Origin: Escherichia phage bumzen
Reading direction: 5' to 3' (one strand)
Sequence record: MN850635.1
DNA length: 64,000 bases
Shown: positions 3,448-3,795 of the stretch, piece after piece
How the letters are laid out: the number at the start of each line of letters is the position of its first letter
Position numbering within the stretch: position 1 is the first letter of the stretch
The notes under the pieces: generated by a model
The model's database searches: none
What the model was told of the DNA's origin: nothing
The model's input: only the letters and a program-made list of their open reading frames with translations
Position numbers and translations under genes: made by a program

Positions 3448-3795
3448 ATGAAAACTTGTATTAGGTGCAAACTTAGCAAGGATGAAAATGATTTCTACAT
3501 GAAAGATGGTAGGAGAACTCATTCATACTGTAAAAAGTGTGTTAATGAGCAAACCATAGAAAGACAAAGAGCACTTAAACTCTCAGCTATTGAGTACAAA
3601 GGTGGGGTTTGTCATGATTGTGGTAAGAAATATCATCCAGCAGTGTATGACTTCCATCATTTGAATCCTTCAGATAAAGATTTTAACATTGGTCATAGGA
3701 AAAGCCTTAAGTTCTCTCAAGAACTAAAAGATGAACTTGACAAATGTGTTTTGCTATGTTCAAATTGCCATAGGGTAAGACATGCAAAGTATTAG
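3448..3795 (+). CDS. HNH homing endonuclease
   Basis: ATG at 3448 after GGAG; zinc-ribbon and HNH motifs (CIRC...CKKC, CHDCG, HHLNP, CSNCHRVRH); lies inside the tRNA array. Confidence 0.75.
   Translation: MKTCIRCKLSKDENDFYMKDGRRTHSYCKKCVNEQTIERQRALKLSAIEYKGGVCHDCGKKYHPAVYDFHHLNPSDKDFNIGHRKSLKFSQELKDELDKCVLLCSNCHRVRHAKY

Follow-up and report, generated by a model that had tools for sequence, protein, structure and literature searches.

Is the small HNH gene that lies among the transfer RNA (tRNA) genes of Escherichia phage bumzen a mobile homing endonuclease gene, and have genes of this kind shaped the mosaic structure of the surrounding genome? We addressed these questions for the open reading frame (ORF) at 3448-3795 of a 64,000-nucleotide stretch of sequence record MN850635.1 (this whole stretch is referred to below as the window), which a first-pass annotation had read as a gene for an HNH homing endonuclease lying within the tRNA array. 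The window comes from a Felix O1-type myovirus (Ounavirinae, Felixounavirus), is 99.8% identical to Escherichia phage tootiki over positions 2800-4500, and contains 25 tRNA genes called by ARAGORN between 1776 and 7048. On the evidence given below we consider it likely, with good confidence, that the ORF at 3448-3795 encodes a free-standing HNH homing endonuclease and that a 356-bp cassette in the spacer 3' of a tRNA-Arg(UCU)-like gene carries it. The elements of the locus (lengths in nucleotides, nt, or amino acids, aa) are as follows.

3119-3147, plus strand: sigma-70-like promoter, TTGACA-17-TATACT, 11 of 12 matches (a consensus match only).
3352-3433, plus strand: D-armless tRNA-Arg(UCU)-like gene with encoded CCA (Rfam tRNA model; missed by ARAGORN).
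3436-3791, plus strand: inserted cassette of 356 bp, holding the Shine-Dalgarno sequence and the ORF; absent from HNH-less relatives.
3438-3441, plus strand: Shine-Dalgarno sequence GGAG, 6 nt 5' of the ATG at 3448 and within the inserted segment.
3448-3795, plus strand: ORF of the predicted HNH endonuclease, from the ATG at 3448 to the TAG at 3795, 115 aa.
3792-3805, plus strand: right-hand border of the insertion site, TTAGTTAGCAGATT; in HNH-less genomes it follows CCAAT directly.

Insertion and distribution of the HNH gene

Aligned with the HNH-less phage adrianh, the window has exactly 356 extra bases at a site that, when empty, reads CCTCGACCAAT joined directly to TTAGTTAGC; the cassette boundaries carry a 2-nt (TT) ambiguity. 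On its left the site is bordered by the 3' end of the tRNA-Arg(UCU)-like gene, and the TAG stop codon of the ORF comes from the target-side sequence TTAGTTAGC. The insertion is a precise, gene-sized indel in an inter-tRNA spacer, outside any intron or intein. We compared insert lengths at 19 loci drawn from GenBank and IMG/VR (10 carriers and nine non-carriers), and found 356-357 bp in all 10 carriers and 0 bp (once -1 bp) in all nine non-carriers. Presence/absence polymorphism among related genomes, which the first-pass annotation had set as the test of its proposal, is therefore what the related genomes display. For the prevalence count the related set was the 306 phage records that match window positions 2800-4500; orthologues with at least 80% identity are present in 27 records (tblastn), and 27 records likewise span at least 80% of the 1.7-kb region, a prevalence of approximately one related record in eleven. 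The carriers include Felix O1 (ORF45), Alf5, mio, heid, warpig and tootiki, as well as the Mooglevirus Sf16; the non-carrier adrianh comes from the same Danish wastewater source as four of the carriers, and carriers and non-carriers are interleaved there.

The gene is intact and under purifying selection: no motif residue is changed among orthologues, and their pairwise ratios of nonsynonymous to synonymous substitution rates (dN/dS) range from 0.07 to 0.14. The 115-aa protein of the window is shared without change by Alf5 and mio, and DNA identity to the window gene is 94.7% for Felix O1 and 84.7% for Sf16. The window, tootiki, warpig and heid have one and the same cassette (100% identity) between 700-bp flanks that are only 90-97% identical; such identical cassettes in diverged backbones point to recent transfer and to a distribution that does not follow the backbone. 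The single-nucleotide polymorphisms (SNPs) around the locus are grouped in blocks, as is typical of mosaic phage genomes.

The same junction is occupied differently in Mordin, an HNH-less Mooglevirus, which has a different, tRNA-like insert of about 128 nt between CCAAT and TTAGTTAGC; the insertion site is thus a hot spot. This insert (4469-4600 of Citrobacter phage Mordin, locus L115) ends with a T-arm-like sequence, GGTTCGACTCC, an acceptor-like strand and CCA, and may be another aberrant tRNA-like element. In a 93.8-kb Felixounavirus contig (L005, IMGVR_UViG_3300045988_024527), from position 10065 onwards, the HNH ORF is interrupted 39 nt past its ATG and is followed by at least 3.9 kb of foreign DNA with a DNA methyltransferase-like ORF and an opposite-strand ORF of 308 aa; the break reflects either cargo inserted into the HNH gene or a chimeric assembly.

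The encoded protein

The 115-aa protein has a zinc ribbon (CxxC..CxxC; C4, C7, C28, C31) at its N-terminus and a zinc-bound HNH core (C55, C58, H70, H71, K99, C104, C107, H108, H112) at its C-terminus, in keeping with the zinc-ribbon/HNH description given by the first-pass annotation. It matches PHROG 2255, 'HNH endonuclease', with E=3e-39, and profile comparison against Pfam and PHROG gave no GIY-YIG match. The pattern CxxC...HH...CxxCH aligns with McrA and the En domain of a group II intron maturase, such that H70 and H71 take the place of their HH (the catalytic His) and H108/H112 that of their CH..H (the metal-ligand His). An AlphaFold2 (AF2) model (mean predicted local distance difference test, pLDDT, 94.5) has HNH domains as its top fold matches and contains the beta-beta-alpha-metal fold of HNH / His-Me finger nucleases. 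In a family alignment of 56 relatives (42-92% identity), C4, C7, C28, C55, C58, H70, H71, K77, E96, K99, C100, C104, C107, H108 and H112 are invariant and C31 is nearly so; the invariant set includes the CxxC...CxxC zinc site (C55, C58, C104, C107) that frames the HNH motif. By its sequence the family is an HNH motif variant, and we conclude that the window protein is a divergent HNH-fold protein with predicted nuclease activity.

GenBank records differ in where the gene begins. A GTG start corresponding to position 3397 is annotated in tootiki, warpig and heid (132-aa product) and in Felix O1 (130 aa), and a start of the ATG-3448 type in mio, Alf5 and Sf16. The GTG-3397 start is probably an over-extension of the ORF, because the upstream stretch overlaps the tRNA-like gene and falls outside the inserted segment.

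The position of the large terminase gene (7478-9094), about 3.7-4 kb downstream, raises the question of an HNH partner of terminase in DNA packaging, as in HK97. Most relatives with the same terminase have no HNH gene, however; 16 ARAGORN tRNA genes and three ORFs (66 to 265 aa) intervene, and the HNH gene is not adjacent to the portal or small terminase genes. We ruled out a packaging factor of the HK97 gp74 type by position and by dispensability (HNH-less relatives are viable), and consider a terminase partner of any kind exceedingly improbable.

The tRNA-Arg(UCU)-like gene and its transcription

The atypical tRNA that the first-pass annotation placed 15 nt upstream of the HNH gene is supported as a tRNA-like gene by the Rfam tRNA model, which matches 3352-3430 with 33.4 bits (gathering score 29). 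Its acceptor stem is 7 bp long, 4 nt stand where the D arm would be, the variable region is enlarged by a 20-nt insertion, and the T arm, GGGTTCGAGTCC, is normal. The anticodon loop, CUUCUAA, holds UCU (Arg); the CCA of the gene ends at 3433, and the ATG of the HNH gene is 15 nt downstream. The gene is conserved across Felixounavirus, and two base pairs of the anticodon stem have undergone double compensatory changes from G-C to U-A (window, tootiki, warpig and heid versus adrianh and Felix O1); these changes favour a functional RNA. At the equivalent position the Moogleviruses Sf16 and Mordin have a canonical tRNA-Arg(TCT) of 76-77 nt. The authors of the Felix O1 genome paper remarked that no tRNA seemed to be present for the over-used AGA codon (PMC3185647).

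We found no terminator-like site on the plus strand between the promoter-like site at 3119-3147 and the HNH ORF, and this arrangement suggests that a single transcript from the promoter-like site would cover the HNH ORF, the tRNA-like gene and the intervening non-coding block. About 150 nt of the non-coding block (3148-3351) are identical in Felix O1 and adrianh. Rfam yields weak matches of this block to transfer-messenger RNA (tmRNA) and permuted-tmRNA models, far under their gathering scores, and the permuted tmRNA that ARAGORN calls in the homologous part of Mordin (L115, 3613-4362) is probably spurious.

Paralogues at other tRNA ends

Three further HNH genes of the same family, at 35-40% identity and with the same invariant residues, occur in Felixounavirus tRNA arrays, which gives four family-occupied sites, each 14-17 nt past the CCA end of a tRNA. 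The sites of the paralogues are empty in the window.

3027-3028, plus strand: empty tRNA-Met/tRNA-Ile spacer; Felix O1 has ORF44 here, starting 17 nt past the CCA of tRNA-Met.
3935-4009, plus strand: atypical tRNA-like gene, anticodon loop CUCCAAA (Trp, anticodon CCA), missed by ARAGORN; the site at its 3' end is empty.
4698-4703, plus strand: empty tRNA-Gly/tRNA-Thr spacer; Felix O1 has ORF47 here, starting 14 nt past the CCA of tRNA-Gly.

At the second of these sites phage VpaE1_ev78 has a paralogous HNH gene that starts 14 nt past the CCA of tRNA-Trp. There a canonical tRNA-Trp (annotated in the record) and the HNH gene together replace the window-type tRNA-Trp-like gene, indicating that at this site the tRNA allele travels with the nuclease gene. 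Trp is the sole amino acid without a tRNA among the 25 genes called by ARAGORN in the window. Compared with Mooglevirus, the anticodon stem of 3935-4009 has four differences per strand with pairing kept (ACGG/CCGU versus UAAG/CUUA), and Rfam gives this gene only 21 bits, with the tRNA-Sec model.

Proposed mechanism and its alternatives

In the mechanism that we propose, the promoter-like site at 3119-3147 would drive transcription of the HNH gene together with the tRNA cluster, and the gene's own Shine-Dalgarno sequence would serve for its translation. During co-infection the enzyme would nick or cut an HNH-less genome at or near the empty site (the tRNA 3' end with its CCA, and the downstream spacer), and recombinational repair from the carrier genome would copy the cassette, with some of the flanking tRNA-cluster DNA, into the recipient. 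Since the insertion would interrupt the recognition site, the carrier itself would be protected; such an interruption would be the likeliest form of protection if this locus is the target, because among the genomes aligned no flank polymorphism separates carriers from non-carriers. (Target-site immunity through five right-flank SNPs, seen in a three-genome alignment, was considered and rejected: the HNH-less L007, L008, L011 and L013 carry the carrier-type flank.) Nuclease activity, the cut site and homing itself, that is, all steps beyond an intact and mobile HNH gene, we infer by analogy with characterized systems.

Several observations weigh against this account. Ordinary homologous recombination could also produce identical copies in different backbones, given how highly mosaic these genomes are. 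No co-conversion tract can be delimited around the locus, because the flanks (3100-3900) are nearly invariant in carriers and non-carriers. The Sf16 orthologue, at about 85% identity, has diverged about as far as its own flanks (83-92%), a divergence compatible both with long vertical residence accompanied by losses and with transfer. With regard to the protein, the Pfam HNH model (PF01844) scores 17.6 bits, below its gathering cut-off of 21.4, and is matched at E<0.01 by just 11 of the 56 family members; furthermore, the position of the middle Asn of H-N-H, as defined by McrA and the En domain, is held by an invariant Lys (K99) in 56 of 56 members (N106, in CSNCH, is nearly invariant but part of the zinc knuckle).

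The points on distribution and divergence are also those on which the gene might be seen as ancestral in the tRNA cluster of Ounavirinae and now in the course of being lost, with patchiness arising from deletion and ordinary recombination and not from homing. Felixounavirus and Mooglevirus both have the gene at this site, which agrees with ancestral residence, as does the fact that the genomes are mosaic throughout, also where there is no endonuclease gene. Loss, however, would have to remove the same exact 356 bp each time with only 2 nt of microhomology, and it accords poorly with strong purifying selection on the gene, with 100% identical copies in backbones that differ by 3-10%, with paralogues at three other tRNA 3' ends, and with the same polymorphism in an unrelated phage genus (Pakpunavirus, described below); we regard ancestral loss as unlikely. 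The points on the protein, together with the tight linkage of the family to tRNA genes, would likewise suit a zinc-finger protein that binds nucleic acid (one regulating or processing the tRNA transcript, for example) and has the HNH scaffold without catalysis. Yet the general-base His of H70-H71, the metal-ligand His H108/H112 and both CxxC pairs are invariant, and a needed tRNA regulator would not be absent from 90% of near-identical tRNA clusters, and so we give a non-nuclease function very little credence. Homing by an HNH endonuclease remains the explanation that we prefer.

The wider family and its neighbouring tRNAs

The family extends well beyond Felixounavirus. We surveyed 76 non-redundant loci, nearly all of them on IMG/VR viral contigs, and found a tRNA within 2 kb of the ORF at 42 loci and within 100 nt at 36. 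On unrelated metagenomic contigs, relatives with 52-65% identity lie 14-22 nt past tRNA-Arg(TCT), tRNA-Arg(ACG) or tRNA-Leu, and on one bacterial-type contig the stop codon of the HNH relative overlaps the start of a tRNA-Arg(TCT) gene. The abutting tRNA at the 36 loci is Arg(TCT) in 22 cases and Asn(GTT) in 10; where the locus has a single tRNA, it is a directly adjacent Arg(TCT) in eight of nine. In arrays of at least three tRNAs, Arg(TCT) abuts the HNH gene 11 times, as compared with 3.9 times expected under random choice within each locus (P ~2e-4, uncorrected for shared ancestry). Clustering at 60% identity (single linkage at 50-55% merged the whole family and was uninformative) resulted in 59 clusters, 26 of which abut a tRNA (14 Arg(TCT), nine Asn(GTT); arrays and single-tRNA loci taken together). 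The abutting tRNA-Arg genes have little in common beyond universal tRNA features and the anticodon loop.

In a neighbour-joining tree of the family, Arg(TCT) neighbours mark several clades, in three different arrangements, and Asn(GTT) neighbours a single clade; tRNA-Arg(UCU) lies upstream throughout the clade of the window, and a further clade, of about 30 members, is free of nearby tRNAs and acts as an internal control. Among cultured phages, the Pakpunavirus PAK_P4 has a relative 36 nt past tRNA-Arg(TCT). This relative is carried by five of 131 related records, and most of the listed non-carriers are approximately 390-400 bp shorter at that place; the Pakpunavirus pair is an independent replicate of the polymorphism.

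It is possible, and we put this forward tentatively, that we are dealing with a widespread HNH family whose lineages are specialized for particular tRNA flanks (chiefly Arg(UCU), then Asn(GUU)), inserting a few nucleotides from the tRNA end and sometimes carrying the tRNA along: an isotype-selective HNH counterpart of SegB, and a vehicle spreading single tRNA genes, especially the AGA decoder, among unrelated phages. The tRNA-end position and the Arg(UCU) bias of the family are a lead and not an established result, because the base rates of phage tRNA isotypes and shared ancestry are only partly controlled. We found no earlier report in the literature of either the tRNA-end position or the bias, which is weak evidence given incomplete coverage. 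If the idea is correct, a tRNA-3'-end HNH family with an Arg(UCU) bias would help to explain both the shuffling of phage tRNA repertoires and the spread of single tRNAs.

Some further observations bear on the idea of a combined tRNA and HNH cassette. At one type of locus in IMG/VR (L039 / L116), a tRNA-Arg(TCT) and HNH pair lies between genes that, judged by motif reading, resemble RNA-repair genes (a KxDG nucleotidyltransferase, RNA-ligase-like, and a P-loop kinase fused to a 2H phosphoesterase), and at another (L041) a 2H-phosphoesterase ORF adjoins such a pair. Relatives of these loci have tRNA-Arg(CCT) without the HNH gene, or neither. A search of the GenBank phage set for relatives of L041 and L039 found nothing useful, and a neighbouring-gene search for loci of the L039/L041 type returned only five relatives, a result that is suggestive and not decisive.

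These associations also bear on whether the nuclease is kept for the benefit of the phage, either through amplification or exchange of tRNA genes against tRNA-targeting defences, or through exclusion of competitor phages; either function would be compatible with homing. SegB of T4 amplifies tRNA-Tyr and thereby allows escape from Septu, and its homologues are enriched near tRNAs with no isotype preference (PMC13096335). The strong constraint on the 115-aa protein, the canonical tRNA-Trp that arrives with a paralogous HNH gene in VpaE1_ev78, and the L039 pair between RNA-repair-type genes all agree with such a benefit. On the other side, approximately 90% of Felixounavirus records lack the HNH gene, and no tandem amplification was seen in alignments that were made for other purposes (no dedicated search for it was made); we therefore think it improbable that phage benefit is the main reason for the presence of the gene. 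The question of how tRNAs are shuffled and spread has become more important with the knowledge that phage tRNAs counter tRNA-cleaving host defences, and with the demonstration that SegB amplifies tRNAs.

Other endonuclease-like genes and the genome mosaic

The first-pass annotation listed four more endonuclease-like genes in the window and proposed that an active load of homing endonucleases had shaped its mosaic structure. Three of the four are endonuclease genes by profile comparison.

38974-39507, minus strand: HNH_3+AP2 endonuclease gene next to the DNA polymerase gene (Pfam); polymorphic.
49103-49603, plus strand: HNH_3+AP2 endonuclease gene, with a weak AP2 match; polymorphic, at a switch of nearest relative.
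49600-50097, plus strand: SegE-type GIY-YIG endonuclease gene; present in most relatives.

Two of the genes had been said to share an N-terminus, and the proteins of 38974-39507 and 49103-49603 do have LHYDPETGVFTW in common (43% identity overall). At the first site tootiki and heid have a different allele; tootiki and many other relatives lack the second gene, as an indel of about 490 bp. The best PHROG match of 49600-50097 is PHROG 447, 'NAD synthetase', a label that has been copied into several GenBank records and is probably a mis-annotation. The fourth candidate, 60706-61221, fared differently: it matches phrog_3500 (function not assigned), has a weak HNH-like HH..GG..N..N core without the zinc-binding cysteine pairs, and lies within an unbroken match in 206 of 253 records. 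Because it is near-universal and has only this weak core, we do not count it as a mobile endonuclease gene; from its sequence it may be a domesticated or degenerate HNH protein.

Profiles of identity in 1-kb steps show the window to be tootiki-like (99.5-100%) at 2-5 kb (the tRNA cluster and HNH gene) and at 43-48 kb, and heid-like at 48-51 and 55-59 kb. The switches of nearest relative at about 39 kb and about 49 kb coincide with endonuclease genes, and many other switch points have no endonuclease gene nearby. The proposal that endonuclease genes shaped the mosaic is supported, with caveats: the focal gene and both HNH_3+AP2 genes are polymorphic and two switches fall at such genes, but many switches do not, and the GIY-YIG gene is present in most relatives. 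The relation of the endonuclease genes to the mosaic is only correlative. Placement of nuclease genes at recombination boundaries has been described in published work (PMC10448857), with which the window agrees.

The region of the DNA polymerase (38974-42240, minus strand) differs among relatives. In the window the polymerase is one ORF of 909 aa, followed by the HNH_3+AP2 gene; the tootiki polymerase is annotated as two pieces, followed by a different homing endonuclease, and in several other records an HNH gene is flanked by entries named 'DNA polymerase (x2)'. The pattern suggests that in Felixounavirus the polymerase gene has been split in association with endonuclease genes.

Comparison with known systems

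As an HNH homing gene the window gene is already known. In Felix O1, Whichard et al. (2010) described six genes for HNH endonucleases and excluded inteins (PMC3185647), and orthologues are labelled in GenBank as 'HNH endonuclease' or putative HNH homing endonuclease; the finding is ordinary in this respect, because the Felix O1 HNH genes have been known since 2010 and are annotated in many records. Felix O1 ORF45, Alf5_045 and Sf16 gp31 are orthologues at the same site, with no substantive difference from the window gene. What the locus offers is a clear-cut natural case of a selfish gene gained and lost at one nucleotide-exact site, in phages of which cultured carriers (Alf5, tootiki and heid) and a cultured non-carrier (adrianh) grow on E. 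coli K-12, so that homing crosses would be easy.

T4 MobA-E, I-HmuI and I-TevIII are HNH homing endonucleases that spread by gene conversion after a nick or break. The window gene resembles them in its HNH motif, in being a small selfish gene and in its sporadic distribution. It differs in that its protein has an N-terminal zinc ribbon in place of NUMOD/AP2 DNA-binding modules, and in that the gene lies in a tRNA spacer and not in or beside a protein-coding gene; moreover, the protein is no closer in sequence to these enzymes than to McrA or group II intron En domains. Nearer in setting are F-TflI and F-TflII, as well as F-TflIV, of phage T5, site-specific HNH endonucleases of the tRNA gene region (Akulenko et al. 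2004, as cited in PMC2330249), with which the window gene has in common an HNH-type endonuclease gene inside a phage tRNA gene region.

The closest parallel in arrangement is T4 SegB. It reads the T-psi-C motif GGTTCRANTCC, its cuts often fall right behind CCAR, and in crosses with T2L it results in near-100% inheritance of segB and the neighbouring tRNA genes (PMC2330249). Both are free-standing endonuclease genes among tRNA genes, beside a tRNA-Arg, and absent from close relatives; the window cassette starts 2-4 nt past the CCA of a tRNA-like gene whose T arm, given above, fits the motif that SegB recognizes. In contrast, SegB is a GIY-YIG enzyme whereas the window protein has the unrelated HNH/His-Me finger fold, and the window family is biased to Arg(UCU) and Asn(GUU) whereas the homologues of SegB are without isotype preference. 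We therefore compare the window family with T4 SegB as a possible HNH analogue, similar in its working at most, and not as a member of the same family.

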